From sequence record PQ724393.1: a DNA stretch of 64,000 nt. One strand, 5' to 3'. A model generated the notes under the pieces. That model did no database searches. It had not been told where the DNA came from and was given only the letters and a program-made list of their open reading frames with translations. A program made the translations under genes and the position numbers. How positions within the stretch are numbered: position 1 is the first letter of the stretch; the number at the start of each line of letters is the position of its first letter. Origin of the DNA: a phage. This document shows, in pieces, positions 10,804-52,663 of the stretch.

Positions 10804-11892
10804 ATGAAAGCAAAAGAACTTGACTTTGATGTAGCCTCCTTGTTTAAAGGAGGCTCAAAGACCTCCGCCGGCCAGTCTAAAGCTAAACCGGCCCAAACTA
10901 CAGTAATGGCCCAATACCCGGCAGAAAGGGCCTCTGGCAATGATACCTCCACAGATATGGTGTTAAGCGATTTATATAAAAATGGATTACTTTTTACGGC
11001 ATATAATTTTAGCTCTCGTGTATCACCTGATTTGCGTAATGACCGATCAAGTCAAATGTCTAAAAAGTTTTCAAAAGCTGCTAGTAAGCTTACCGGCAAT
11101 ACCGGAGGATTCAGCGCGGTTAAAAACTTGTTCAGTAATAACTCTAAGGGAGTTAAATTTGACAACCAAGCTTTGGCAAATATTTTACTCCCACGTTCTA
11201 AATCTGACGTAGATTCGGTGTCGCATAAATTTAATGATGTCGGTGAATCATTAATTACTAAAGGTGGTGGTACTGCTACAGGTATTTTAAGTAACATTGC
11301 AAGTACTGCTGTATTTGGTGCATTGGAATCTGTAACTAACGGGGTAATGGCTGATTCAGGTGAACAGATATACACTACCGCCCGTAGTATGTATGCAGGG
11401 CCGGATAACCGTACTAAGGTATTTACCTGGGAAATGACCCCACGAAACGCCCAAGACCTTATCCAGATTATTAAAATATATGAAATCTTCAACTATTATT
11501 CTTATGGCGAAACAGGTAATTCGGCTTTCGCAGGTGAATTAAAAGAGAAGATTGATACTTGGTATCGTTCTACGTTTAAAAAAGAAGCTATTGACAAGTT
11601 TGATGGTAAGCTATTAGGGGAAAGTATTACAAGCTTCCTTTCTAATGTTATTGTGGTAAGTAACCCGACCATTTGGTATATCCGAAACTTTGGCGATAGC
11701 AGTTCATATGATGGTCGTGAAGATATTTTTGGTCCATGCCAAATCCAGAGTATCCGTTTCGATAAAACCCCTGACGGTCAATTTAATGGATTGGCTATTG
11801 CTCCTAACTTACCATCTACGTTTAGTTTAGAAGTTACTTTCCGTGAAATTATTACTCTGAACCGTGGCTCACTTTATACGGAAGGATTCTAA
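10804..11892 (+). CDS. 48: baseplate tail-tube cap protein gp48
   Basis: 362 aa (T4 364); position. Confidence 0.85.
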   Translation: MKAKELDFDVASLFKGGSKTSAGQSKAKPAQTTVMAQYPAERASGNDTSTDMVLSDLYKNGLLFTAYNFSSRVSPDLRNDRSSQMSKKFSKAASKLTGNTGGFSAVKNLFSNNSKGVKFDNQALANILLPRSKSDVDSVSHKFNDVGESLITKGGGTATGILSNIASTAVFGALESVTNGVMADSGEQIYTTARSMYAGPDNRTKVFTWEMTPRNAQDLIQIIKIYEIFNYYSYGETGNSAFAGELKEKIDTWYRSTFKKEAIDKFDGKLLGESITSFLSNVIVVSNPTIWYIRNFGDSSSYDGREDIFGPCQIQSIRFDKTPDGQFNGLAIAPNLPSTFSLEVTFREIITLNRGSLYTEGF

Positions 11893-12821
11893 TGTATACT
11901 TTACAAGAATTTCAGAACCAGGCAATTAATATTGACCTACAGAGGAATAACCTGTTTAGTGTAGTATTTGCTACAGTTCCTTCTTCTAAATCCCAAGCGC
12001 TCCTCGACCAGTTCGGTGGAGCTTTATTTAACAATATCCCATTGAATAGCGATTTGTTTGGTATTACACAAGGAGAGTTGACCCAAGGTGTTACGACATT
12101 AGTGACAGCGGGCACTCAGAAGTTGATTCGTAAGTCAGGCATAAGTAAATATCTGATTGGAGCTATGTCATCCAGGGTTGTGCAGAGCTTACTAGGAGAG
12201 TTTGAAGTAGGTACATATCTGATGGATTTTTTCAATATGGCCTATCCTACGGCAGGTCTTTTAGTCCACGCCGTTAAAATCCCGGATAATACTTTGAACT
12301 ATGAAATGGATTTGAACCACAACTCGCCTAACATCAAAATTACCGGAAGAGAATATTCTCCATTGGTATTAAGCTTCCGTATGGATTCTGAAGCTGCTAA
12401 CTACCGTGCTTTTAATGATTGGGTCAATAGTGTTCAAGACCCTATTACACAATTAAGAGCATTACCGGAGGATGTTGAAGCTGACATTCAAGTCAACCTT
12501 CATTCTCGTAATGGATTACCCCATACAGTAGTAATGCTTAACGGGTGCGTTCCTGTGGGTGTTTCATCGCCGGAATTATCTTATGACGGTGATAACCAGA
12601 TTGCTTCGTTTGATGTTACATTTGCTTATAGAAGTGTACAGACAGGCGCAGTTGGTAAACAGGCTGCTTATGAATGGTTGGAAGATAAGATTATTAAAGG
12701 CGTGGCGGGTATAAGTGAGAGCAATTCGCTGAGTTCTTCAGTGGCCAAATTAAGTAGACTTTCAGGAGCTTCTAGTGGATTAACAGGATTGGTTAATAGT
12801 AGAATATCGAGGTTGCTATAG
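11892..12821 (+). CDS. 54: baseplate tail-tube initiator gp54
   Basis: 309 aa (T4 320); position; start overlaps gene 48 stop. Confidence 0.85.
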   Translation: MYTLQEFQNQAINIDLQRNNLFSVVFATVPSSKSQALLDQFGGALFNNIPLNSDLFGITQGELTQGVTTLVTAGTQKLIRKSGISKYLIGAMSSRVVQSLLGEFEVGTYLMDFFNMAYPTAGLLVHAVKIPDNTLNYEMDLNHNSPNIKITGREYSPLVLSFRMDSEAANYRAFNDWVNSVQDPITQLRALPEDVEADIQVNLHSRNGLPHTVVMLNGCVPVGVSSPELSYDGDNQIASFDVTFAYRSVQTGAVGKQAAYEWLEDKIIKGVAGISESNSLSSSVAKLSRLSGASSGLTGLVNSRISRLL

Positions 12822-12849
12822 CAAAAAAGGAGAGCGTACGCTCTCCTTT
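12822..12849. terminator. bidirectional palindromic hairpin terminator between gene 54 and the alt cluster
   Basis: ggagagcgtacgctctcc with A-run 5' and T-run 3'. Confidence 0.55.
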
Positions 12850-12855
12850 AGGGGT

Positions 12856-13146
12856 TTACTTACGGAACGAAATGAAACCTGCTGCAGTCATTAATGGCTG
12901 CTTTTTAACAAAGACTGTAATAGAAATAGGAGCTTCAGATTCGAGTTGTCCTGTCACTACACCGTTAAAAATGTTTTCGGTTTGTTCTGGATAAGAAAAA
13001 TTCTCAACAGGTCGGATATCAAACTGTTTGTCTTCACCAAAAACTCGACGTAATTCATTACCTACGGCACTGTCAAACTCTTCAGAAGCAGGGATAACGT
13101 TTTCAACCACCAGTTCTTGACCATTAAAACGGAATGCAGATTTCAT
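12856..13146 (-). CDS. hypothetical protein (alt.-3 position)
   Basis: 96-aa ORF between gene 54 and the alt genes. Confidence 0.4.
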   Translation of the reverse strand: MKSAFRFNGQELVVENVIPASEEFDSAVGNELRRVFGEDKQFDIRPVENFSYPEQTENIFNGVVTGQLESEAPISITVFVKKQPLMTAAGFISFRK

Positions 13147-13203
13147 AATGTTCTCCTCATGTTTGTGTAAGGTAATAGTACCACATCCTTGTGGTGTTGT
13201 AAA

Positions 13204-15327
13204 CTACATTTTGAATTTATTTGATAAAGAAGAGATATCCAAAGACGCTGCAAGGATTTCCATAGCCTCGTTGCTTTCAGAAACGGATTCATTAACCAAG
13301 AATTGACTGAACCCATCCATCAGGCGAACTTCACCGGTTTCCATCAAATGGTCACCATCGTAAACAGATTCACTGAGCTCTGAAGGAGGTGTTACGGTAG
13401 CTTCCATAAGGTATTTGTGAGATACTCTATCATTCATGGCAAAAGCCGCTACTTTATCAACCTTCAACAATAATCCACGCGGAAGGATAATTTCTGCTTC
13501 TTCGGCATATTCTGTAAGGTCACCAGGAGCGATAACTTTAACTGCTTCAGCACCTCGAATAACCATACCAATTTCAGCAATTCTATCCGCAGGACCTTCA
13601 GGTGCAATTGGATTACCGAACTCGTCTTCTTCCCATTCTACCTCTTCGTCATCGACTTCACCCACATCAGATGAACTACCGCTAGCCAATTTAAACAACT
13701 CATCAGCGGAGGATAAAGAACCTTCGCCGCCAACAAAAACGGCTTGGTTGTCGAGGGCCATATAATTTTTACCAAATTCACCAAAGATGTTAGGCTTTAA
13801 TGAGGCTGACACAAAGTTCTTAAAGTAAAATGTTTTGTTATCGATATTATGGCGCAGAATTTTGTATGGCAAATCCTGACCACGATACAAAATAGTACCC
13901 TTAGGAAGTTTAATACCCTTAGTAAATGCTGAGTCTAAATCCTTAATCAATTTAATAGCCGTTGTATTGTTTTCGGATTCAGGTTTACCTAAAAGGAATA
14001 AGTTCATAGGAGCATATTCAGCCGCGCAATATTCAATAATAGCATTGCTTTCGTCTTTGGTTAGGTCCTTAGGTTTAATGAGCTCGCCTGAATAAGCATA
14101 TGCATCACTAATAGAATCGTTAACCAGTTTATAAACGGCTTCCATAGCGAAAGCAATTCGAGAGGCCTTTTCTGAAGGGGAACCCTTAAAACGGGTACTC
14201 AGGTTATTAACAATTTTCTTAATAATATCCAGACTATTGGTTGTATTGATTTGCGAAAGACCACTTAAAAGTCTATCGACTTCTGTATTAAAAAATGCCA
14301 TATTATTAGAGTAAATTTCAAACCCTTGTTTATCTCTATTAGCATAATTTAGTTTAAATTTACTATCAGTCATTAAAGCGTGTGTGAGAGCAATAGTGTA
14401 TCTAAAGTTGGCAAGGTCCTCGCTCTTAGATTTAAACTGAGAAGCCTGGCGCATTTTAGTAATAGCACCTTTTTTAAAGTTCTGGCTAATCTGTTCAATA
14501 CCTTCATTCTCAGGGCCTTCAGCCGTGTGAACCGGTACAGAAGCTTCAAACTCGTTATAAACCTGCAATTCTTTAGGGGACAAAGTTTCAGGCTCAGCAG
14601 TAGAATACTGCGCGGCTGCTGCCATACGACGGGAAATCTTAGTACGGGTAATGACAGCCTTATCAGTACGTTTCTCTTCAACTTGTGCAATAGATGCCGC
14701 TACTGCTTCGACCTTACTTACGGCCTGGCCGGTTTTCTTAGAAACATACACTTCGCCAACTTTAGACTCAACTTTAGTATAAAGATCGGCATTAATTTCA
14801 GGCATACCCTTGATATCTTCAATATTAGCACCACGACGTACTAAAAGAACGTAGGTATGTTTTCCGCTGAATTGGAACATGTCGTCAACAACTTTAAACT
14901 TACCACCGGTACGAGCCATAGCCAAACGAGCTAATACGCGCTGAACGGTAGGGCCTTTACCTTTCATTTTCTTAGTAGGGAAACGGAATAAAACCGCGTC
15001 CATTTTAAGTTTGTTTATTTGTTCATATATGGTATCGAAAATGGTGTTCAGTGTACCGAGTGGATCGGTACCCAAACCGCCCTTGAGTTCTGCCGGAGCG
15101 CCTTTAGCAGATAAACTCATTAAGATAACATGGACGTACTTATCGCCCGCCTTAACCATCTTAATAGCGTCGCCTTCAGACGCATAAGATACCATACGTG
15201 CTACTAAATTGTCATTACCAGGAGCATGTACCGCAAAAATCTGCGGTACGCCTGAGCCAGGTTTAAGATTTGTTACTGGGTAATTTTTTTTATCGCTTTT
15301 ATCAAAAACTTCGTTTAAATTTTCCAT
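13204..15327 (-). CDS. alt: Alt-like ADP-ribosyltransferase, paralogue 1
   Basis: 707 aa; N-terminal ~235 aa shared with T4 Alt and the other two paralogues; C-terminal R-S-ExE signature (LYRGQ, FVSASLKP, EAEIILPRG). Confidence 0.85.
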   Translation of the reverse strand: MENLNEVFDKSDKKNYPVTNLKPGSGVPQIFAVHAPGNDNLVARMVSYASEGDAIKMVKAGDKYVHVILMSLSAKGAPAELKGGLGTDPLGTLNTIFDTIYEQINKLKMDAVLFRFPTKKMKGKGPTVQRVLARLAMARTGGKFKVVDDMFQFSGKHTYVLLVRRGANIEDIKGMPEINADLYTKVESKVGEVYVSKKTGQAVSKVEAVAASIAQVEEKRTDKAVITRTKISRRMAAAAQYSTAEPETLSPKELQVYNEFEASVPVHTAEGPENEGIEQISQNFKKGAITKMRQASQFKSKSEDLANFRYTIALTHALMTDSKFKLNYANRDKQGFEIYSNNMAFFNTEVDRLLSGLSQINTTNSLDIIKKIVNNLSTRFKGSPSEKASRIAFAMEAVYKLVNDSISDAYAYSGELIKPKDLTKDESNAIIEYCAAEYAPMNLFLLGKPESENNTTAIKLIKDLDSAFTKGIKLPKGTILYRGQDLPYKILRHNIDNKTFYFKNFVSASLKPNIFGEFGKNYMALDNQAVFVGGEGSLSSADELFKLASGSSSDVGEVDDEEVEWEEDEFGNPIAPEGPADRIAEIGMVIRGAEAVKVIAPGDLTEYAEEAEIILPRGLLLKVDKVAAFAMNDRVSHKYLMEATVTPPSELSESVYDGDHLMETGEVRLMDGFSQFLVNESVSESNEAMEILAASLDISSLSNKFKM
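14620..15327 (-). repeat. direct repeat: conserved 5' ~700 bp of alt paralogue 1
   Basis: roughly 80% nucleotide identity to 16669-17379 by eye; approximate boundaries. Confidence 0.6.
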
Positions 15328-15330
15328 TAT

Positions 15331-17379
15331 TTACCCTTGGGTGAATTTTTCTGGGGTTTCGTCAAAATTAATACATGAAGCTAAAATAGGCATTATATCC
15401 ACCTTGGTCGATTTGACGAATGAATCAAAAGACACAGGGTTGTCGGTCTCTGTTTCTACGCCTTGGTAAACAACCAATTCACCGGTTTCCATCAATGCAT
15501 CACCATCATAGATAACCGCATTTTCTGCTAGTTGGTCTGTGGTCTGGATATCGGCTTCCAATAATTTGGTGTTGTAGTTTCCTTTATATGAGGCATCAGT
15601 AATTTTAGTAATCTTAACAGTAGTTCCGCGTGGAAGAATAACCTCTTGTTCTGTTGGAGAACCTGACAATTCACCGGGCACAATTACGTTAATAGAGTCT
15701 GCACCGGAAATTTTCCAACCGATGTTCATCATTGTATTTTCGGAACTCGTCAGCATACTTGGAAGAACAATTTCATTATCGCCTTGGAAAGATGTCCCAA
15801 CGCGATAGTCCTGATGAACTGCGGCCATTGCGACGTTTGATACCCAGCCGCCAAAGATAATCGGCTTAAGGGACGTTGATACATAGTTCCTGAAATAAAA
15901 CAATTTTGAGTGTTTGATTTTATCAAAAGTGTTAACATTTAAATATTGACCACGCCAAAGTGTAATATCAGGTGGCAATTTATGGCCAATTTCAAATGCC
16001 GCATCCATATCATTAATTACTTCAATTACATGATGGCTATCAATGAATTCTGCATCCTCTTCATAATAATCACCCAACAAATAATTATTAACATCGGTAT
16101 AATATTGGCCGCAATAAGAAGAAATAGCCTCACGCTGCTCATACTCAAATCGATTATCACTATAACTGGCTGTAAAATGCATAACACTTTCTGAAGCTTC
16201 ATTAGCAAAGTCGGCAACAGCAGCACTTATACGTTGAGCATACTCTTGTTCCCAAAGCTCTGCTGCATATTCTGCCGCATCCATATTAGGAGGGGCCTCA
16301 TTCATTTTTCTTTCGATAAATGCAGCTTTGCGAAGGTTAAGAACCTCTGCACATGATTCGGCAAAAATCTGCATCTGCTTCATACTGCCGACAGGAGCAC
16401 GTTTAAGTTCACGATGCATACGGTTAAAAATTGGGTCAGAGTCTTCGACTCGAATTTCTTCTTTCCACACACCATTTGCTCGCATAGCCGTATCTGCCGC
16501 GCGCATACGCTCCATAGTATTCGTTTCAGAAGGTTGAATAAAAATTTCTAGTTCTTCATAATCATCGATAAGTTCCGCTGTTGCTGGGGCACTAAATTTT
16601 GATGCCTCTGCATCAATCTCATTCCAACCTTCCGGAACTTCATCTCGAGGAGAATACTGGGCTGCGGCTACAGCACGCCTAGAAATCTTGGTAGTGGTAA
16701 TAACAGCCTTATCCGTACGTTTTTCTTCGACTGCCGCTATACTAGCAGATAGTGCTTCTATTTTGGTTACTGATTGGCCTGTTTTCTTGGATACATAAAC
16801 CTCACCAACTTTAGACTCAACCTTAGTGTAAAGGTCTGCATCAATTTCAGGCATACCTTTTATGTCCTCAATATTAGCTTGTTTACGAACCAGTAAAACG
16901 TATGTATGTTTGCCTGTAAATTGATACATATCATCGACAACTTTAAACTTGCCGCCAGTACGAGCCATCGCCAATCGTGCCAATACACGTTGAACAGTAG
17001 GACCCTTACCTTTCATTTTCTTGGTAGGGAACCGGAAAAGAACTGCATCCATTTTAAGTTTGTTTACTTGTTCGTATACAGTATCAAAAATGGTATTCAG
17101 CGTACCAAGTGGGTCAGAACCTAACCCGCCTTTCAGCTCGGCTGGGGTACCCTTAGCAGACAAACTCATCAAAATAACATGAACATATTTGTCGCCAGGC
17201 TTAACCATTTTAATAGCGTCTCCTTGAGACGCATAAGATACCATACGAGCCACCAGATTATCATTACCTGGTGCTTGGATAGAGAAAATCTGTGGAACAC
17301 TGGAACCCGGTTTAAGATTTGTTACTGGATAGTTTTTAGCGGAATCACTATCAAAAACCTCGTTTAAATTTTCCATCAT
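15331..17379 (-). CDS. alt: Alt-like ADP-ribosyltransferase, paralogue 2
   Basis: 682 aa; same N-terminal module; ART motifs LWRGQ, YVSTSLKP, EQEVILPRG; unrelated central region. Confidence 0.85.
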   Translation of the reverse strand: MMENLNEVFDSDSAKNYPVTNLKPGSSVPQIFSIQAPGNDNLVARMVSYASQGDAIKMVKPGDKYVHVILMSLSAKGTPAELKGGLGSDPLGTLNTIFDTVYEQVNKLKMDAVLFRFPTKKMKGKGPTVQRVLARLAMARTGGKFKVVDDMYQFTGKHTYVLLVRKQANIEDIKGMPEIDADLYTKVESKVGEVYVSKKTGQSVTKIEALSASIAAVEEKRTDKAVITTTKISRRAVAAAQYSPRDEVPEGWNEIDAEASKFSAPATAELIDDYEELEIFIQPSETNTMERMRAADTAMRANGVWKEEIRVEDSDPIFNRMHRELKRAPVGSMKQMQIFAESCAEVLNLRKAAFIERKMNEAPPNMDAAEYAAELWEQEYAQRISAAVADFANEASESVMHFTASYSDNRFEYEQREAISSYCGQYYTDVNNYLLGDYYEEDAEFIDSHHVIEVINDMDAAFEIGHKLPPDITLWRGQYLNVNTFDKIKHSKLFYFRNYVSTSLKPIIFGGWVSNVAMAAVHQDYRVGTSFQGDNEIVLPSMLTSSENTMMNIGWKISGADSINVIVPGELSGSPTEQEVILPRGTTVKITKITDASYKGNYNTKLLEADIQTTDQLAENAVIYDGDALMETGELVVYQGVETETDNPVSFDSFVKSTKVDIMPILASCINFDETPEKFTQG
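16669..17379 (-). repeat. direct repeat: conserved 5' ~700 bp of alt paralogue 2
   Basis: see 14620-15327. Confidence 0.6.
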
Positions 17380-19464
17380 TTACCCTTGGATGAATTTTTC
17401 TGGGATGTCATAGAGGTCTATGCATGAAGCCAAAAGAGGCAATACATCAAACCGTGTAGATTTAACAAATGAATCAAAAGATACAGGGCTTTCGGAAGTA
17501 TCGAAGTCATCTTGATATACGACCAACTCGCCGGTTTCCATTAGTACGTCACCATCATATACCACAGATTCTTGAAGCTCATCTGTTGTCATAACTTCAG
17601 CTTGGATGAGTTTTGTATTACTAGATGTTGTTCCATCATTATTAGAAGAATCTGTTATTTTATTAACTTTGACCATTAATCCACGCGGTAGAATAACTTC
17701 GGCTTCAGTTGCTATTCCGAGATTTCCTGGATATACGACATTAACTTTATGAGCCCCATCAATAGCCCATCCTATTTGAACTTTAACATAATCAGGATTT
17801 TCTTTATATGCTCTTATTTCATTAGGATTAATAGTTATTCCTTCTTCATTTTTATCGACTGTCAATTCATTGCGAACTTCCGGTTCTAAAAGACCAATAC
17901 CTGCGTGGGTAACACCAAAACGTCCAAAAATGATAGGAGTTAAAGAAGTAGATACAAAATTTCTGAAATAGAACACTTTATTTTTAACTAGTGCTTCGTA
18001 TATAGGAGCAGTCATACTCTGAGCACGATAAACTGTGATGCCCTCTGGTATACGGTCGCCATTTTCAAAAGCAGAATCCAAATTATTAACCGCGGATTCG
18101 ATATCTTTTTCGCTCATAACCTCATAGTTCTGAGGATTATAACGTCCTAAAAGAAGATTATTTATGTCTGTATATCCTGAACCACAATATTCTCTGATGC
18201 CGCGCTTTTGTGATGGGGTATATTTAGAGCCCTCACGAGCAATAGTAATATCGACCATAATACCGCCACCCACACCAGCAAAACTATATACACGTTTTTT
18301 AATGAACTTGGTCTTGGCGGCTTTCCACTTCGCATCGGTCAATTCATTCCAGAGGTCGTCAGGTTGGCCTTTACGAGTTTTGTTATGCCATGCCAGCCAT
18401 TCACCTTTGTATTCTTCGAAAACGGTATTAATAGCAGAGGCATATTTTTCTAGAGCTTTAACAGATGTCAAAGGTTCGTTTTTGATGGCCGTAAGAATTT
18501 TATTTTTAATTTTCTCTTGGATTTCACCTATACCGTGAAGAGGAAACATTTTATAATCGTAATGCAATTCTTCAGCCGTGCCTTCAGCCACTATATTAGC
18601 AACCTTATTTTTAGCCGCAGGAGAATTGTTATTAGTAACCATTTCCTGAGCCTCAGGGATTAATGGAACTGTTGCAGGTTTATTAAAATCTGCTGCAGTA
18701 GCTTCATATTTCTTAAACAATTCACTTTCATTACGATAAGATTCCAATGATTGGCTTGCTGCAATGGCGCGCCTAGAAATCTTAGTCTTGGTTATAACCA
18801 TTTTATCAGTGCGACGTTCTTCAACCTTAGCAATACTGCCGGCAATAGCAGTTTCTTTAGTAACCTGCACACCTTCTTTTTTGGAAATATAAACTTCACC
18901 GACATCAGAATCTACCTTAGTATACAATTCAGCATTAATTCCAGGCATACCTTTGATATCTTCGATATCAGCTTGTTTACGAACTACTAAGATGTAAGTA
19001 TGTTTACCGGTAAATTGGTACATAGCCGGAACCACTTTAAAACGTCCACCGGTTTTCTGTGCTACCAAACGTTGGATAATCCGTTGGACAATAGGTCCTT
19101 GTCCTTTCATTTTCTTGGTAGGAAAACGGAACATCACGGCATCCATACGAAGCTTTTTAACTTGGTCATAAACCACATCAAAAATAGTATTAATCGCATC
19201 TACAGGAGTAGGGCCAAGGCCACCTTTAAGTTCGGCTGGAGTACCTTTAGCCGATAAGCTCATTAAAATTACATGAGCATATTTATCGCCTAATTTAACT
19301 TGTTTGATTGCGTCGCCTTCAGAAGCATAAGAAACCATACGTGCTACTAATTGGGACTCTACGCCACCAATCTTCCAAATCTGCGGTACTTTAAGTTTAG
19401 GGTTCAAGTTTACTGTAGGCAGTGTGCCTTCGGACTCAAACACTTCATTTAATTGTTCGGTCAT
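17380..19464 (-). CDS. alt: Alt-like ADP-ribosyltransferase, paralogue 3
   Basis: 694 aa; N-terminal module about 65% identical to paralogues 1 and 2; ART motifs VYRAQ, FVSTSLTP, EAEVILPRG; C-terminal tail shared with paralogue 2. Confidence 0.85.
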   Translation of the reverse strand: MTEQLNEVFESEGTLPTVNLNPKLKVPQIWKIGGVESQLVARMVSYASEGDAIKQVKLGDKYAHVILMSLSAKGTPAELKGGLGPTPVDAINTIFDVVYDQVKKLRMDAVMFRFPTKKMKGQGPIVQRIIQRLVAQKTGGRFKVVPAMYQFTGKHTYILVVRKQADIEDIKGMPGINAELYTKVDSDVGEVYISKKEGVQVTKETAIAGSIAKVEERRTDKMVITKTKISRRAIAASQSLESYRNESELFKKYEATAADFNKPATVPLIPEAQEMVTNNNSPAAKNKVANIVAEGTAEELHYDYKMFPLHGIGEIQEKIKNKILTAIKNEPLTSVKALEKYASAINTVFEEYKGEWLAWHNKTRKGQPDDLWNELTDAKWKAAKTKFIKKRVYSFAGVGGGIMVDITIAREGSKYTPSQKRGIREYCGSGYTDINNLLLGRYNPQNYEVMSEKDIESAVNNLDSAFENGDRIPEGITVYRAQSMTAPIYEALVKNKVFYFRNFVSTSLTPIIFGRFGVTHAGIGLLEPEVRNELTVDKNEEGITINPNEIRAYKENPDYVKVQIGWAIDGAHKVNVVYPGNLGIATEAEVILPRGLMVKVNKITDSSNNDGTTSSNTKLIQAEVMTTDELQESVVYDGDVLMETGELVVYQDDFDTSESPVSFDSFVKSTRFDVLPLLASCIDLYDIPEKFIQG
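18760..19464 (-). repeat. direct repeat: conserved 5' module of alt paralogue 3 (more diverged)
   Basis: protein-level conservation of residues 1-235; approximate. Confidence 0.45.
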
Positions 19465-19486
19465 AATAATTCCTCTTTAATAACCT

Positions 19487-19494
19487 TATTTATG
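19487..19494 (-). promoter_or_regulatory. late-promoter-like box (CATAAATA) upstream of alt paralogue 3
   Basis: 7/8 match to TATAAATA, 23 nt upstream of the start. Confidence 0.35.
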
Positions 19495-19500
19495 CCAGAA

Positions 19501-19516
19501 AAGGCCCGAAGGCCTT
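19501..19516 (-). other. UUCG-tetraloop stem-loop
   Basis: aaggcccgaaggcctt; - strand RNA loop UUCG. Confidence 0.4.
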
Positions 19517-19518
19517 TA

Positions 19519-19701
19519 TTAAAGTACTAACAACGTACGGTACACTTCAAATTTAGGACCCTTTTCATAGCGGTCGAAATTATCTTTAAAATCGGCGAAC
19601 GCGATTTCATTTTCAAATTCAAGGACAATTTGGGACACTGTGGTGGAGACATCGCCACCTTCTTTATATCCAATAACCACGGTTTCTAAATAAGCTTTCA
19701 T
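19519..19701 (-). CDS. hypothetical 60-aa protein between gene 30 and alt
   Basis: ATG one nt after the gene 30 stop (TAATATG); table ORF trimmed. Confidence 0.4.
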   Translation of the reverse strand: MKAYLETVVIGYKEGGDVSTTVSQIVLEFENEIAFADFKDNFDRYEKGPKFEVYRTLLVL

Positions 19702-19702
19702 A

Positions 19703-21208
19703 TTATAGTCCAGTTTGAGACCAATCGCCAAATACATCTTCAAATGTATCAGCTTCTGTTTTATCGAAACGCCAACCTTTAATAATTGGAAGGAAAATAC
19801 CTACAGTATCAGTACGTCCTTTAGAATGAACCCAACCATTACATTCGCAGTCAGCAATACGACCAATCAATTTACCTTCACGGGCTTGTTTCATAAGAAG
19901 TTCACGGTCTAAATCAGGACGGTCTTCTAATGGAATCAATACCTTTTTACCTGATTTATCTTTCTTATGGGTGGTATCTTTAAAGCCTGAGCCACAGTCA
20001 CTTGTAATTCGACGACAACGTGATACCAATTCGACACCGCCAAGTTTGTTAGGGTCCTTCGAGTGTTCATAATAACCCACTACTTCTAAAGCGATATCGA
20101 TTACTTCTTTGAACTTGATAAGATTCTTAGAACGGCGGTTTTCCCAGTAGGAGTCCATGTTCTTAAGGATAATGCCTTCCAGGCCCTGGTCGACATATTT
20201 CTTATAAACGACTTTAGCTTCGTCAAGATTATTAACCCATTGCGTTTCTATAGGCTCGACACGTGTAAAACCTTCAGCCATTTGTACTAATGCCGCTAAA
20301 CGAACATCGTATTTTTGACCTTTAATTTTGCCTTCAGAATAAACTTCATCCAGTGGAACAAAGTCCCATGCCTGTAATACCATACCATCAGCTTCAGCTG
20401 GAGTAATAGTTCCTTGAAGAGCTTTATTAGCCAAACCATTTGAAGTAGAACGGTCGGCGACTGTCCGGAATTCCTTGGTTTTACTTAATTCCGGAAGTTC
20501 TTCATCAAACATACTAAACAAATCATTAGATGCTTTCGGTTCAACCTTAGGCGTGTGGTAAACTAATTCGCCATCAATCATAACACCATTAGGATGGCGC
20601 TGACGAGCTTCTTCAGTCATTTTAATAAGTTCGGCTGCAAGCTTAGTAAGCCCTTGATATTCATTACCACCGCGAGTAAGGAATGTTACCCCATCGTTAC
20701 GAACTTCAGCAAAACAACGGGCACCGTCAGCTTTTAATTGAGCGAACGCTGGCCATTTAATATTTTTCTTAATTAGAGCTTCGTCATAAGAACTAGCCAA
20801 CATCTGTGGTTGTTCAGGGATTAAACCTTTCCAAACCTTGTTAGCAATAGAAATCGATGCACCACATTCAAGGTCGCGCATCATTACACGACGTAGTACC
20901 TCAGCGTCTGGACCCTTGGCATCGGCGATAATTTGGGCAAGTTCTTCAATAGCAGCATTACCTGTAATCTTACGGGTTGCTAGTGTGAACTCAGCGAAAT
21001 CAAGAAGGTCTTCAAGTGTAATCATACCAAAGGATTGAGACGTAAATCCAGGTTCTGGCCACTTTTTGATGCCGTAGTTCAAACGACGGGTATAAGCCAT
21101 ACGATATACACGTTTCAGAAGCTCATTATCCTTTTCACGGGCAATAATAGCTTCTTTAGCTTTAGTAGAATCAATAGAAGCAATTTCGTTTAAAATATCT
21201 AAAATCAT
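19703..21208 (-). CDS. 30: ATP-dependent DNA ligase gp30
   Basis: 501 aa; adenylation motif KADGAR; size and position as T4 DNA ligase. Confidence 0.9.
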   Translation of the reverse strand: MILDILNEIASIDSTKAKEAIIAREKDNELLKRVYRMAYTRRLNYGIKKWPEPGFTSQSFGMITLEDLLDFAEFTLATRKITGNAAIEELAQIIADAKGPDAEVLRRVMMRDLECGASISIANKVWKGLIPEQPQMLASSYDEALIKKNIKWPAFAQLKADGARCFAEVRNDGVTFLTRGGNEYQGLTKLAAELIKMTEEARQRHPNGVMIDGELVYHTPKVEPKASNDLFSMFDEELPELSKTKEFRTVADRSTSNGLANKALQGTITPAEADGMVLQAWDFVPLDEVYSEGKIKGQKYDVRLAALVQMAEGFTRVEPIETQWVNNLDEAKVVYKKYVDQGLEGIILKNMDSYWENRRSKNLIKFKEVIDIALEVVGYYEHSKDPNKLGGVELVSRCRRITSDCGSGFKDTTHKKDKSGKKVLIPLEDRPDLDRELLMKQAREGKLIGRIADCECNGWVHSKGRTDTVGIFLPIIKGWRFDKTEADTFEDVFGDWSQTGL

Positions 21209-21468
21209 TTTACCGTCCTTACAGTTTGTGTACTTCTATTATAAGCTACTTCATCTAAAAGCTCATTTAAAGTTTTGTGATACGATATAATACGCTTATC
21301 TTTAATATCGTATTCAGTAACATACATAAATCCACGCCGAACACATTGGGTAAAGATATCTTCATCTTTGGCTTGGAAATATACAGGATTCAATCGAAGG
21401 AAATGTCTAACGTTTCCATAATCGTGGGATTTAGGCGTTCCATCAGTAATAGTATGAACTACAAACAT
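21205..21468 (-). CDS. hypothetical protein (30.1 position)
   Basis: start moved to ATG one nt after the 30.2 stop; 87 aa. Confidence 0.45.
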   Translation of the reverse strand: MFVVHTITDGTPKSHDYGNVRHFLRLNPVYFQAKDEDIFTQCVRRGFMYVTEYDIKDKRIISYHKTLNELLDEVAYNRSTQTVRTVK

Positions 21469-22108: not shown

Positions 22109-22572
22109 AATAAATCTCTCAATTTGTTTAGGATGTCGATAAACTCTTTTTCAGTTAGTATTGTATCACATTCTGTAAGGTGGCTTGCCATTGAATGCTT
22201 TAAAACCTTACCTTTAGTGGCTTGTAACGCATCGCGAAATCCTTTGTTTTGGAGCGCTGCTTCAAAATATGCATTTGTATACAACTCTTTCCATGCTGCA
22301 GAGTATCTTGAAAAGGGAATTCCAAGCCAGAAAAGCGTCCCACGGTCCGCAGCTCTTGCATAAGCTCTTCCACTTTGCTGGGCGGCCAATCCGGACATCC
22401 CAAATATACGTTTTTGTTGTTCAACATTTTTCACCTTACACCCTTGGAGGAATCCTTCGAGTCCACCAAATTGGATACCATCCATAACGAAAGGCCATTT
22501 AGCAAAGTTACTTAATGCGCATGATGGCCACGGAAAGTTACTTCTAATTTCTAACTCAGACATCTTTGACAC
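22105..22572 (-). CDS. NADAR / YbiA-like (DUF1768) protein (30.3 position)
   Basis: LSNFAKWPFVMDG...E..LQGCK aligns with the YbiA core FSNFAAWPIKVDG...EHYFQAQK. Confidence 0.65.
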   Translation of the reverse strand: MSKMSELEIRSNFPWPSCALSNFAKWPFVMDGIQFGGLEGFLQGCKVKNVEQQKRIFGMSGLAAQQSGRAYARAADRGTLFWLGIPFSRYSAAWKELYTNAYFEAALQNKGFRDALQATKGKVLKHSMASHLTECDTILTEKEFIDILNKLRDLL

Positions 22573-22774
22573 TTATAATTTCGACATCAGCCCAATGCCC
22601 GTAACCAGGCAGACGGTCTTCAATAGATAAATTTCCGTCATTTTTAGGCATTTTAATTGACGTAACGTACGGTTCTAAACGGTTTTCTGCATAATATGGA
22701 AAAACGTCTGTTACACGATAAGTAACTTCGATCATTTCCGTACCAAACAATTTCTGGATTAATTTATTCAACAT
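22556..22774 (-). CDS. hypothetical protein
   Basis: 72-aa ORF in the early-gene cluster. Confidence 0.4.
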   Translation of the reverse strand: MLNKLIQKLFGTEMIEVTYRVTDVFPYYAENRLEPYVTSIKMPKNDGNLSIEDRLPGYGHWADVEIISVKDV

Positions 22775-23664: not shown

Positions 23665-23705
23665 TTTTATTCTCCAGTTTGTTTTCGTATTATTTGGTAC
23701 AGGTC

Positions 23706-23738: not shown

Positions 23739-24072
23739 TTATTTCACAACATTCCAATTTTTCATATCAAGTTTACCAACTTTTTTCATCTGGGCAATCA
23801 GACGTTCAGCGCGTGTACGGGCATTAACGTAATAGAATTCACCAATTTTGTTTTCTTCAATACGACCAGTAATTACAGTTTTCAGTTCATAAATCCAACC
23901 TGTAAAGAAGTTGTGAAGCTCGATGGTAAATGTGAAATCAGTAACCCATACCTTCAGTTGTTTCAACTTCGATGATATCACCTTCAACTGCAGTCAGGAC
24001 CCACATGGTTTCTTGATATTCACCGTTGAAACATTTAGCTTTAACAGATGCATTCAGATTTACAGTTTTCAT
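23739..24072 (-). pseudogene. frameshift-interrupted early ORF (44-aa N-terminal frame plus ~70-aa C-terminal frame)
   Basis: ATG 24072 with RBS reads 44 codons to TGA at 23938-23940; the long downstream ORF to 23739 is in the +1 frame; both frames open between 23938 and 23996. Confidence 0.4.
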
Positions 24073-24112
24073 TTTATTCTCCAGTTTGTTTTCGTATTAT
24101 TTGGTACATGTC

Positions 24113-24143
24113 TATAGTATCATGCCTACCGGAGATGTACACC
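24113..24143 (-). promoter_or_regulatory. early promoter cassette (variant -35)
   Basis: same conserved cassette geometry as the other early promoters. Confidence 0.4.
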
Positions 24144-24151
24144 TTTTTTTA

Positions 24152-24187
24152 AGATTTAGAAACAAAAATGGGACTCCGAAGAGTCCC
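24152..24187 (-). terminator. intrinsic terminator
   Basis: hairpin gggactccgaagagtccc (UUCG loop on - strand) followed by AUUUUUGUU. Confidence 0.55.
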
Positions 24188-24192
24188 ATAAC

Positions 24193-24354: not shown

Positions 24355-24562
24355 TTTTAAATCTCTTAAATTAGGATGCAGGACTTATTGGCGTTGCCTG
24401 CGCAAGCCCTCAAGGGGAACATAGGTTTCGGATATTTAACGACAGGATAACCATAAACCTCGTCATCATACCGACCACGGCTTAGACAGATAACCTTTTT
24501 CTGACGCGTGATAGTACAAAATACATTCAAGAGGTACACCGTAAAACTGTTGGGGTCTTAAA

Positions 24563-24592
24563 ACTATAATGATTCGCAAATCATTAATCAAA
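24563..24592 (-). promoter_or_regulatory. sigma70-like promoter (TTGATT-N17-TATAGT) downstream of rIII
   Basis: - strand reads TTGATTAATGATTTGCGAATCATTATAGT. Confidence 0.3.
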
Positions 24593-24617
24593 CAGTTCGA
24601 CGGCTCCTCGATTTAAT

Positions 24618-36089: not shown

Positions 36090-37744
<1,655 letters not shown>

Positions 37745-37767
<23 letters not shown>

Positions 37768-38101
37768 AATTAGACCGTAGCTTTTTAATGGCAGTAAAAT
37801 CTTTGCGAATATCGAGAACCAATTTGTAAAGATGTTTAATTGTATCTGTATCAAAATATGATACCGCGCAACGTGATTGGCGAATATCTTCTAATGAATA
37901 TTTGCTTTCGCAAGACCCGTATCCAATGATACCACTAATGCACTTGTCATTAAGCGTATATTTCTGTGGGCCATCAATATTATTTTTAGGATAGATATAA
38001 AGGCTCCAATCAAATTTTTGTTCAAGCGTATTAACCTTAACTTCAAGAATCAGTTCAGGATGGGCATCATCTTTAGCAAAGCAAGTGTATTCAGTAAGCA
38101 T
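37745..38101 (-). CDS. hypothetical Cys-containing protein
   Basis: 118-aa ORF. Confidence 0.4.
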
Positions 38102-38346
38102 TATAGCACCTCAACATGTGTGATATCGTTTGGCCAAATGATGTCATGATGGTTATAATAGGAAATATCGCCCTTAACAAAACGATAATTATTACCACGG
38201 CCTTGCTCCCAGGCCAAAGATACCTTATGGAGGTTTTCATAACGGTCCCTGACCCAAAAGGATTCGTCATATGCTGTATTATTATAAAGTCTATCCAATT
38301 CTGCTTCGGTACCAGTAAACTCTTTTAAATTGATAGTAATTTGCAT
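38101..38346 (-). CDS. hypothetical protein
   Basis: start at ATG with GAGGAAAA RBS (MQITINLKEF); 81 aa; the 160-aa table ORF is a read-through composite. Confidence 0.4.
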   Translation of the reverse strand: MQITINLKEFTGTEAELDRLYNNTAYDESFWVRDRYENLHKVSLAWEQGRGNNYRFVKGDISYYNHHDIIWPNDITHVEVL

Positions 38347-48685: not shown

Positions 48686-51600
48686 ATGGCTACTTTAAAA
48701 TCGATACAATTTAAAAGAAGTAAAATAGCAGGAGCCAAGCCTACTGCAGCCCAGTTAGATGAAGGTGAACTGGCTATTAACTTGCGTGACCGTACCATTT
48801 TTACTAAGTCAGACCAGGGACAGATTATTGACCTTGGTTTTGCAAAGGGTGGTACTGTCGATGGCGATGTAACTATTAATGGGACCCTGAATTTAAACGG
48901 TCCTGAAATTGTTGCCTCTGGTGGTTATATAGAATTTAACTATCGTACGACAGGTAGTGGCTCTTGGGCAGGCCAGCACAGGGCCAAAGCTCCTATTTTT
49001 GCTGATTTAAGTGCGGCTGCATCTACTTCAGAATACAACCCACTGATTAAACAACGCTTTAAAGATGGAACATTTTCAGCAGGCACATTAGTTTCGGAAG
49101 GTAGTTTTAAATTCCACTATATTAATGAAGCTGGTGATTCAAAATATTGGACCTTTAATCGTAATGGTAATTTTCAAGTTGATACCGGTAGTTTAATGGT
49201 ATCAGCAGGTAATATTTCTGCATCAGGCAACATAAATTCGGCTAATGGTATTATCACCGGTCCTGAAATTGTTACCAAAAATATTAATTTCAGTACAAAA
49301 TCATTTGTAGCTAATGCAAATATAGGATACGACTGGGTTTCATTACCTACCTGGGTTTATAATCCTCCTGCTGATGGTTCTGATGATACTACTAACGGTT
49401 TAAACTATTTGCGTAAATTGCGTGCATCAAGTGCATCAAGTATTTTCCATGAAATTGCTGATTGTCGCAAAGGTAAACCACAAGAAATTTCTTGGTGGAC
49501 CGGCGTAGGACCATCGTCTTTCCAATGGGCTTTTGATAACTCTGGACGTATTACCGCAGGTAAATCAATTTCTGTAGGTCTTCCTGATAATGGTACAAAT
49601 GGTCGTTACCCACTAGATTCAGCAATTTCTATTGGTATTGCAATTGGTGATAATGACACCGGTATTAAATGGGTTCGTGACGGCGTTATTGATTTCATGG
49701 CTAACAGTATTTCAACCGCTACCATTTTGAATAACGGTATTAACAGTACTAAAAAATTGACGGTCGGTTATAGCCGTGATTCCGGCTCTACTTGGGATTT
49801 CCCAAATAACAACCAGGCAATGTTTACTGCTCGTACCGATATTGATGGTAATAATAATGGTGACGGTCAGACTCATATCGGTTATAGCAGCAATGCCAAG
49901 ATGTATCACTATTTCCGTGGCACAGGTCGTATGTCTGTTAGTATGGGTGATGGACTTCTTGTTGAACCGGGTATTTTAGATATTAAAACCGGTTCAAATT
50001 CATTAAATTTACGTGCTGACGGTACTGTTGCTTCAACGAAAAGAATTAAACTTGATAATGGATTGGTTCTTACCGGTTCTAGACCTGATGGTATTCAACT
50101 TGATGCACCCACATCAGTAGATGGCACTAAATCTATTTTGTGGGCTGGTGGTACTCGCGCAGGTCAGAATAAAAACTATGTAACTATTAAAGCATGGGGT
50201 AATGCATTCAACTCAACTGGTGATAAAACCCGTGAAACCGTATTTGAAGTTGGAGATGGACAAGGATACCATTTTTATTCACAGCGCATATCCCCTACCG
50301 GAGTTGAAACAGTTGGCCCTGTGATTATTCAAATGGCAGGTAGTTTATTGGCTCGTGGTACGTTAAACACTGATGGCAATCTTTATGTGAAAGGATTAAG
50401 TACACATGAAGGTACTGTGACCATGAATAATGGCCTTCGTTTAACTGGCGGCGCTAATATAAGCGGCCAGGTTAAAATTGGTGGTGTTAACGATGCATTG
50501 AGAATTTGGAACGACCGATATGGTGCTATTTTCCGTCGCTCAGAAACATCATTACATATTATCCCGACCAATGAAAATGAAGGTGAAAACGGTCCGATAA
50601 GCAACCTTCGCCCGTTTAGTATTGAATTAGGTACTGGTGCCATTAATATGGGCCATTCTTTAATGATAGGCAACTCGGCCCGCGGTGATGGCCTGCTGAA
50701 TATTGATACCAAAGCATTCTTGATTACAATTAACAGTCATTCGAAAATTAAACCTAATTATCGTATGGACTTAGAAAACGGTGCTTATATAAATGCTTTA
50801 ATGGATGCAAACGGTCGTTCAGCTGGCGCAGGTTCATTCGCGTCCCAGAATAATGAAAACGTCCGCGCTCCATTCTACATGAATATCGACCGTGATGATA
50901 CCAGCACTTATGTTCCAATGATAAAGCAACGTTATGTTCAGGGTAATGGATGTTTTTCAATAGGTACTTTGTTGAATAATGGCAACTTCCGCGTCCATTA
51001 TCACGCTGGTGGTGACGGTGGTTCGACTGGTGCTCAGATTGCAGATTACGGTTGGGAATTCACTAAATCCGGTGATTTTGTATCTCCACGACGTGTCTCG
51101 GCAGGTGGTTCGGTTTATCTAGGTACGGATGGTAATATCACTGGTGGTTCTGGTAATTTCTCTAACCTGAATACTACTTTAGACCGCAAAGTTACCACGG
51201 GGTGGATTAACTATTCTTCTGAAAGTGGCTGGTATAAATTGGCAACAGTAAATATGCCTCAAGGTGCAGCTACGGTCCAATTTAAAATAACAGGCGGTTC
51301 CGGTTTTAACGTTGGTATTTTTAGACAAGCAACAATTAATGAAATTGTATTGCGTTCCGGTAATAATACACCTAAAGGAATTAACGGTGTTTTATGGCAG
51401 CGCGAAACTGATGCTATTAAAGACATTGCATATATTAATACCTCAGACGATGAGTATGATGTTTATATTAATTGTGGTACTTATTTAAATAGACTTACCC
51501 TAGAATATAGCACTTCAGAAAACGCTTCGGTAGTAGTTTATGGATTATATGGGCCTACGCAATCACCGGTAGAAGAGCTTCCTGTAGATATTGTTAAAGG

Positions 51601-52663
51601 TCGTGTTTTTAAACTTCTTAATAATAGCTCAGATGTTTTTGACGCTGGTAGTTCTAATATTTCTACAAATGCCACCTTTGTTGCTAATACAACTGTAGGT
51701 TTCCGCCATAAATCCAATGGTGATGAAAGTGGTTCTGCCGCTACTCTGTTTTATAATGATGGTACTACGTTCCATATATTATTAACAGATAAGAACACCG
51801 ACACAGATAAAACTAAAGCCTCTGGTTCTAACAACAGTTTAAGGCCTTTTTCTATCAATATTGCTTCTGGTAAAGTAACTATTTCAAACTCTATGAGTGT
51901 TTCTGGTGTTGCAGAGTTTTATAACGGTCTTAATATCAAAAACAATGGAAGCATTAATTTTGATAAGTCTGGTGCGAACCCGAGAAACATGCGTATATTC
52001 CATGCCGGTGATGCTTCACGTGGAAACCGTATTGAAGTTGCGGATGAGTCTAATTACTTAGTTTATTGGGAAAAAACTCCGGGCGGCGCAAACCGTTCTT
52101 CATATAACCAATGTGAAGTTAATGGTATAACTACTCTTAACGTTAATACTAAAGTGAACACCCCACAAATTGGAGCATTTGGTGTTAACACAACTAATGG
52201 ATTTGGTGGTAACTCAATTGTAATAGGTGATACCGATACAGGTTTCAGACAAGTTGGCGATGGACTTTTAGAAGTTTGGACCAATGCCGTTCGCCGGATG
52301 CGATTCCAGAGTGGTGACACTTATTCTGATATGAATATAAATGCTCCAAACGTTTATATTCGTTCGGATATCAGATTGAAATCTAACTTCAAACCTATTG
52401 AAAATGCTCTTGAAAAGGTTGAACAGCTCGACGGTTTAATCTATGATAAAGCTGATTATATTGGTGGAGAGGTTGTTCACACTGAAGCAGGTGTTATTGC
52501 ACAGAGCCTGGAAAAAGTATTACCTGAAGCTATTCGTGAAGTTGAAGATATCAAAGGTAATAAAGTTCTGACCGTTTCGACTCAGGCCCAAGTGGCGCTG
52601 TTACTTGAAGCGGTTAAAACCCTGTCGGCTAAAGTTAGAGAACTTGAAGCTAAATTAAATTAA
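48686..52663 (+). CDS. 37: long tail fibre distal subunit gp37 with C-terminal intramolecular chaperone domain
   Basis: 1325 aa; N-terminus MATLK.IQFKRSKIAG..P.A..L.EGELAINL.DRTIFTK matches T4 gp37; C-terminal ~99 aa begin with SDIRLKSN. Confidence 0.9.
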   Translation: MATLKSIQFKRSKIAGAKPTAAQLDEGELAINLRDRTIFTKSDQGQIIDLGFAKGGTVDGDVTINGTLNLNGPEIVASGGYIEFNYRTTGSGSWAGQHRAKAPIFADLSAAASTSEYNPLIKQRFKDGTFSAGTLVSEGSFKFHYINEAGDSKYWTFNRNGNFQVDTGSLMVSAGNISASGNINSANGIITGPEIVTKNINFSTKSFVANANIGYDWVSLPTWVYNPPADGSDDTTNGLNYLRKLRASSASSIFHEIADCRKGKPQEISWWTGVGPSSFQWAFDNSGRITAGKSISVGLPDNGTNGRYPLDSAISIGIAIGDNDTGIKWVRDGVIDFMANSISTATILNNGINSTKKLTVGYSRDSGSTWDFPNNNQAMFTARTDIDGNNNGDGQTHIGYSSNAKMYHYFRGTGRMSVSMGDGLLVEPGILDIKTGSNSLNLRADGTVASTKRIKLDNGLVLTGSRPDGIQLDAPTSVDGTKSILWAGGTRAGQNKNYVTIKAWGNAFNSTGDKTRETVFEVGDGQGYHFYSQRISPTGVETVGPVIIQMAGSLLARGTLNTDGNLYVKGLSTHEGTVTMNNGLRLTGGANISGQVKIGGVNDALRIWNDRYGAIFRRSETSLHIIPTNENEGENGPISNLRPFSIELGTGAINMGHSLMIGNSARGDGLLNIDTKAFLITINSHSKIKPNYRMDLENGAYINALMDANGRSAGAGSFASQNNENVRAPFYMNIDRDDTSTYVPMIKQRYVQGNGCFSIGTLLNNGNFRVHYHAGGDGGSTGAQIADYGWEFTKSGDFVSPRRVSAGGSVYLGTDGNITGGSGNFSNLNTTLDRKVTTGWINYSSESGWYKLATVNMPQGAATVQFKITGGSGFNVGIFRQATINEIVLRSGNNTPKGINGVLWQRETDAIKDIAYINTSDDEYDVYINCGTYLNRLTLEYSTSENASVVVYGLYGPTQSPVEELPVDIVKGRVFKLLNNSSDVFDAGSSNISTNATFVANTTVGFRHKSNGDESGSAATLFYNDGTTFHILLTDKNTDTDKTKASGSNNSLRPFSINIASGKVTISNSMSVSGVAEFYNGLNIKNNGSINFDKSGANPRNMRIFHAGDASRGNRIEVADESNYLVYWEKTPGGANRSSYNQCEVNGITTLNVNTKVNTPQIGAFGVNTTNGFGGNSIVIGDTDTGFRQVGDGLLEVWTNAVRRMRFQSGDTYSDMNINAPNVYIRSDIRLKSNFKPIENALEKVEQLDGLIYDKADYIGGEVVHTEAGVIAQSLEKVLPEAIREVEDIKGNKVLTVSTQAQVALLLEAVKTLSAKVRELEAKLN
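52364..52660 (+). other. predicted self-cleaving intramolecular chaperone domain of gp37
   Basis: SDxRLKxN Ser-Lys dyad motif followed by a helical C-terminal segment. Confidence 0.55.

Follow-up and report, generated by a model that had tools for sequence, protein, structure and literature searches.

The early locus at 23739–24072 of the phage sequence PQ724393.1 is a copy of gene 30.8 of the T4-type phages whose reading frame is split by one extra base. The gene is known and conserved, and what splits it is either an ordinary frameshift mutation of one base or an error of one base; the locus is not a recoding site. The favoured reading, to which we give a probability of about 0.58, is that a genuine insertion of one nucleotide, which turned T into TT at 23943/23944, has inactivated 30.8 very recently. 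The whole stretch of DNA that was analysed (64,000 nt) is called the window here, and all coordinates refer to it. A sequence-only reading of the locus had offered three explanations: that the gene became a pseudogene recently, that sequencing or assembly introduced an error, or that a +1 frameshift is programmed. The first two fit the evidence, whereas programmed frameshifting is unsupported because the site has no re-pairing codon, no structure, no slippery run and no conservation.

Identity of the locus

Megablast comparison with a phage collection identifies the source as a JS98-like T4-type phage of the genus Dhakavirus, and the 431-nt query used for the locus returned 43 records at a query coverage of at least 80%. 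The 44-aa ORF matches positions 1–42 of the family profile PHROG 1507 (E 2.8e-14), and residues 16–82 of the downstream ORF match positions 43–112 of the same profile (E 1.8e-25). At the level of profile matching, the split pair is not a chance arrangement, since one family is matched end to end by both. The neighbouring ORFs match PHROG 1427 (30.9) and PHROG 1582 (30.7), and the gene order 31 - rIII - 30.9 - 30.8 - 30.7 - 30.6 is that of the annotated JS98 genome. The sequence-only reading had pointed to the T4 30.7–30.9 region, and it did so correctly, the locus being 30.8 between 30.9 and 30.7.

When one T is deleted, a 333-nt ORF is obtained, the 110-aa product of which matches the gp30.8 of JS98 and MN04 at every residue (100% identity). 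This repaired product scores 163.4 bits against PF06019 (Phage GP30.8), for which the cut-off is 25, and covers model positions 1–124 of 124. The profile match and the conserved position of the PF06019 family are thus both present in the window, while the single ORF of about 110–127 codons is absent. On profile and position, the window copy is a disrupted allele of a family member and not an intact member.

The extra base and the two reading frames

The alignment of orthologues that had been suggested for locating the indel places it at a single extra T (Table 1). In the nucleotide alignment with JS98, MN04 and fDHCT2, the sequences are 99% identical and the only gap column is the extra T of the window. 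The repaired ORF differs from JS98 at five nucleotides and from MN04 at three. All of these differences are synonymous, and therefore nothing has decayed since the insertion. Furthermore, a protein alignment of the two window fragments with eight orthologues (JS98, T4, TG1, JD18, Cronus, Mizar, X20 and ZCKP1, described as seven named genera and one unclassified phage, with ZCKP1 belonging to Phapecoctavirus) shows that the fragments tile the family alignment exactly, with their junction inside the conserved motif EG(M/P)(G/S)|(T/D)DF.

Table 1. Features of the split 30.8 locus and its surroundings, in window coordinates
Feature	Position	Strand	Details
Gene 30.8 (Pfam PF06019, PHROG 1507), frameshifted allele	23739..24072	(-)	334 nt, against 333 nt in relatives
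Inserted base	23943..23944	(-)	TT for a single T, GGGTAC to GGGTTAC; one of the two bases is extra; codon 43/44 boundary
N-terminal ORF	ATG at 24072; last codon at 23941; TGA 23940-23938	(-)	44 codons; from the ORF list and a script
Translated remnant of 30.8	23938..24072	(-)	43 native residues and Tyr, then TGA
Downstream ORF	23739-23987	(-)	+1 frame; 82 aa counted from TTG; stop 23741-23739
C-terminal 67 codons of 30.8 and TAA stop	23739..23942	(-)	Now in the +1 frame
Shine-Dalgarno sequence	24079..24082	(-)	GGAG, 6 nt upstream of the ATG; identical in JS98, MN04 and fDHCT2
Putative T4-early-type promoter	24114..24142	(-)	GTGTAC 24142-24137, 17-nt spacer, TACTAT 24119-24114
Intrinsic-terminator-like hairpin	24168..24189	(-)	UUCG loop and T-run; separates 30.9 from the 30.8 promoter
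Leader cassette, copy 1	24072..24108	(-)	5' UTR and Shine-Dalgarno, 37 nt exact, before 30.8
Leader cassette, copy 2	23665..23701	(-)	Same 37 nt, before 30.7

The frames themselves had been described accurately. The 44-codon frame and its stop are borne out by the ORF list, the raw sequence and a script, and the only long downstream ORF, which runs to 23739, does lie in the +1 frame. The C-terminal stretch of 67 codons is without a convincing start codon or ribosome-binding site of its own, and the +1 frame becomes open only downstream of a TGA at 23996-23994. An interval of 58 nt had been given as open in both frames. The overlap exists, but its length is 53 nt (23993-23941), or 59 nt when both bounding stop codons are included. 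The interval had also been described as free of homopolymer runs, which holds. The longest runs that a script finds inside the overlap are AAA, GGG and TT, and the lesion is a change of T to TT beside GGG.

Distribution of the split among related sequences

Among the sequences searched, the split is neither shared nor conserved. A 61-nt query centred on the site was matched by megablast to 23 phage records, each of which spans it with 60 nt, and the insertion is missing from all 23. By tblastn, a 30.8 homologue is found in 1032 phage records and forms one uninterrupted piece covering at least 80% of the protein in 1026 of them. A 25-nt pattern containing the TT gave zero exact matches in IMG/VR, metagenome contigs and GTDB genome contigs, while the single-T version of the same pattern does match JS98 in IMG/VR. 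In addition, a lookup of the exact 44-aa product returned no recorded gene encoding it. Orthologues with the same two separate ORFs would have counted against the sequence-only reading, but the orthologues are single ORFs.

Genuine mutation or base-calling error

The main competitor of a genuine mutation is a phage with a normal 333-nt 30.8 and a consensus that carries a single spurious T, introduced during sequencing or assembly. This falls short of even odds and is nevertheless a serious prospect. Throughout the 431-nt alignment the window equals the consensus of its relatives, with the extra T as the sole departure, and the identity of the repaired product to the JS98 and MN04 proteins is what such an error would leave behind. 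The TT allele occurs in no independent sequence searched, and the absence of any further private change in 30.8 is equally compatible with an error and with a very recent mutation. The overcall of a homopolymer from one base to two is a known type of sequencing error. Flow-based chemistries are prone to this kind of T-to-TT overcall, and a consensus that was left unpolished could also contain such an error.

Against an artefact stands the behaviour of the rest of the assembly. The window aligns with fDHCT2 over approximately 47 kb, including 21.1 kb with zero gaps, and the alignment with JS98 extends to window position 45330. For this comparison, indels were listed, compensating ones were clustered, and the remainder were set against the fDHCT2 and JS98 annotations. 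Over the approximately 44 kb for which both phages offer a comparison, no frame-changing indel other than the insertion at 23943 is missing from both, and no other lies in a gene body. The other indels up to 45330 whose net length is not a multiple of three are intergenic or close to a gene end, at most a few codons away. Beyond window position 48882, where the comparison is with fDHCT2 alone, indels are intergenic, at the ends of alignment blocks or in divergent patches. Long homopolymers are the usual site of consensus indel errors, and the insertion is not in one. A genuine mutation is favoured over a consensus error because the assembly is not indel-prone and the sequence context is not a long homopolymer.

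The comparisons establish the place and kind of the lesion, its absence from the other sequences searched, the intact ORF of relatives and the lack of recoding signals. We infer that the phage itself carries the extra base, so that it is not confined to the assembly, and further that the 44-residue fragment has no function and that the phage can dispense with 30.8.

Expression signals and the fate of the transcript

The good ribosome-binding site that had been noted at the ATG is the GGAG listed in Table 1, at a spacing of 6 nt. As for the dedicated promoter claimed upstream, a T4-early-type sequence can be recognized there by eye, with a spacer that ends in TGA (TGn) and an A-run directly upstream, but a promoter scanner reported a different and weak match at 30.8 itself. 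We infer the promoter by aligning this sequence with the scanner-reported promoter of 30.7 (TTTACT-16-TATTAT, 23734-23707).

With a genuine insertion, transcription and initiation would presumably be unchanged, as the promoter-like sequence, the leader, the ribosome-binding site and the ATG are as in relatives. Ribosomes would translate the 43 native codons, add a Tyr and stop at the UGA at 23940-23938, yielding a 44-residue fragment, and the remaining 67 codons in the +1 frame would go untranslated. Small early phage genes of unknown function are generally dispensable in culture. The loss would be tolerated, since 30.8 is a small early gene of this class and probably dispensable likewise.

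The leader of 30.8 recurs in front of 30.7. An exact 37-nt direct repeat, TGTACCAAATAATACGAAAACAAACTGGAGAATAAAA, which extends to approximately 46 nt with one mismatch, constitutes the leader and Shine-Dalgarno sequence of both genes, and is present in two exact copies where zero are expected by chance. Judged by this repeat, 30.8 and 30.7 have a duplicated promoter-proximal cassette in common, and it could act as a recombination substrate that deletes 30.8.

Two products or programmed recoding

It is very unlikely that gp30.8 is jointly replaced by two products of the locus, one being the 44-aa peptide and the other a C-terminal fragment whose translation restarts at an internal TTG or GTG. 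TTG or GTG codons do occur in the +1 ORF at 23987, 23981 and 23966, and one Karamvirus protein has only the N-terminal approximately 58 residues of the family fused to other sequence, which hints at some modularity. However, none of the three codons is preceded by a properly spaced Shine-Dalgarno sequence, no orthologue is organised in this manner, and the break falls inside the conserved motif, a position at which a beta-strand begins in a low-confidence model.

We consider it extremely improbable that full-length gp30.8 is made from the split gene by recoding, that is by a +1 shift at GGU-U or UAC-UGA, or by bypass. Some elements of a recoding site can be recognized. The 0-frame UGA stop comes directly after the site and an SD-like GAAGGU a few nucleotides before it, and a +1 shift at GGU-U or UAC-UGA would make either the wild-type protein or a T44Y variant. 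However, neither codon allows the tRNA to re-pair in the +1 frame, as GGU (codon 43) becomes GUU and UAC (codon 44) becomes ACU. The GAAGGU element is weak. Its end is separated by 6 nt from UAC and by 3 nt from GGU, and relatives with a continuous frame, which require no shift, carry it unaltered. The split arrangement is not a conserved one. A 131-nt segment around the site gives no more stable a fold than shuffled sequences do (MFE -22.9 against a mean of -24.7 kcal/mol, z = +0.55), and an Rfam scan of the whole window gave no match. Some spontaneous leakiness is conceivable, and at most a trace of it could be expected at the stop codon.

Two further mechanisms were considered and, like the independent restart of the C-terminal fragment, rejected because their defining sequence features are missing. 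Transcriptional slippage of the dnaX or IS-element type requires a run of approximately seven or more A or T at the shift site, and there is no A/T run at the site. For a bypass of the gene 60 type, a hop from UAC to UAC restores no productive frame, as the UAC landing codon 12 nt downstream remains in the 0 frame, which is closed again at 23889, and a hop from GGU to GGU would delete 14 conserved residues.

It is likewise hardly to be expected that the TT is real and that near-full-length gp30.8 arises in a useful quantity by unprogrammed +1 slippage at UAC-UGA, or that the 44-residue peptide is functional by itself. Either case would mark an early stage, not yet under selection, in the emergence of a recoding site.

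The gp30.8 family

A literature search for gp30.8 and for the gene names 30.7, 30.8 and 30.9 found nothing relevant. For gp30.8, neither its sequence nor an eight-sequence profile finds a relative in the PDB, PADLOC gives no match, and a large protein search returned only two clusters. An AlphaFold model built from a two-sequence alignment has low confidence (pLDDT 54). It hints that gp30.8 may be mostly beta with a C-terminal helix, and that the break may lie at the start of a beta-strand.

Several relatives deserve mention in their own right. In the Enterobacter phage vB_VIPECLOM01 (OQ721912.1, segment 601-1062), a 153-aa protein of PHROG 18504 occupies the 30.8 position; it is gp30.8-like over its first approximately 58 residues only, its C-terminal part being different. 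From its sequence, this protein suggests that the N-terminal segment of the family may be recombinable as a module. Homologues of PF06019 are also found outside the Straboviridae, in the Stephanstirmvirinae, for example in Klebsiella phage ZCKP1 (Phapecoctavirus). The copy in 'Campylobacter phage A110a' has 37% identity to the query and resembles the ZCKP1 copy, so that the Campylobacter host label may be doubtful. Furthermore, two annotations in relatives are odd. In Yersinia phage TG1 (NC_028820.1), the annotated start of 30.8 lies 28 codons downstream of where homology begins, and in phage ESCO10 (OM386655.1), 30.8 is labelled 'putative ABC transporter ATP-binding protein', a name for which its family match gives no support.

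Other differences within the window

The comparison with fDHCT2 and JS98 also reveals differences away from 30.8. The gap between rIII and 30.9 (window 24355-24617, minus strand, 263 nt) contains no ORF with a family match and, by eye, several tandem T4-early-type promoter-like sequences; JS98 has approximately 90 nt more there (alignment break at window 24470/24515). Window 12700-19500 is gap-free and collinear with fDHCT2 (segments: fDHCT2 11754-18014, JS98 15999-20213), and this comparison concerns the alt (ADP-ribosyltransferase) paralogues, of which there are three in tandem in fDHCT2 and two annotated in JS98. Between window 22562-22579 and fDHCT2 21129-21334, approximately 205 nt are extra in fDHCT2 and absent from the window; they correspond to a second 213-nt ORF beside 30.4.

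At window 37541-38109, between frd and the small genes that follow it, the window has approximately 570 nt that are missing from fDHCT2 and show as a gap between alignment blocks; the JS98 genome has orf228 and orf229 in that part. Finally, the distal tail-fibre region (gene 37 area, window 48882-52334) is unaligned to fDHCT2 at megablast level, whereas its flanks are approximately 95–97% identical; this probably reflects the exchange of a host-range cassette.

Implications for annotation and use

The overall significance of the split is small, and its practical value lies mainly in annotation. The appropriate label is a frameshifted gene 30.8, entered as a pseudogene or accompanied by a remark that the sequence may be in error; annotation as a pair of hypothetical ORFs, or as a recoding site, is not appropriate. 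A genuine mutation would make the isolate a naturally occurring 30.8 null mutant of a JS98-like phage, producing a 44-residue fragment and none of the C-terminal 67 residues. The isolate would then provide modest evidence that the widely conserved 30.8 is dispensable for propagation on the isolation host, as well as a ready-made strain for probing what gp30.8 does.

Comparison with known systems

The closest known system is the T4 gp30.8 family itself (e.g. JS98 ABX11139.1 and T4 AAD42449.1), with which the window copy shares its place in the gene order. The repaired product is 100% identical to the JS98 and MN04 proteins and 78% identical to that of T4. The window copy differs from this family in its one extra T, as a result of which it encodes only residues 1–43 and a Tyr.

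The site resembles the frameshift site of prfB (RF2) in that a 0-frame UGA (23940-23938) follows UAC at the point where the +1 shift is needed, with the weak SD-like GAAGGU upstream. However, it is without a codon of the CUU-U type that is able to re-pair in the +1 frame, and its SD-like element is 6 nt from UAC, whereas that of prfB is 3 nt from the shift codon. Moreover, the prfB frameshift is conserved across bacteria, while the split in 30.8 is found in one sequence only. T4 gene 60 comes from the same phage family, and the window site shares with it a stop right after a potential take-off codon (UAC) and an identical UAC 12 nt downstream; in contrast to gene 60, it is without a take-off hairpin, and no relative has a coding gap here.

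The sporadic frameshift pseudogenes and assembly frameshifts in non-essential phage genes likewise consist of a single-base indel that is absent from the relatives searched. As in 30.8, a small early gene is affected, the expression signals are intact and no further decay has followed, so that the window copy resembles these sporadic cases without a distinguishing difference.
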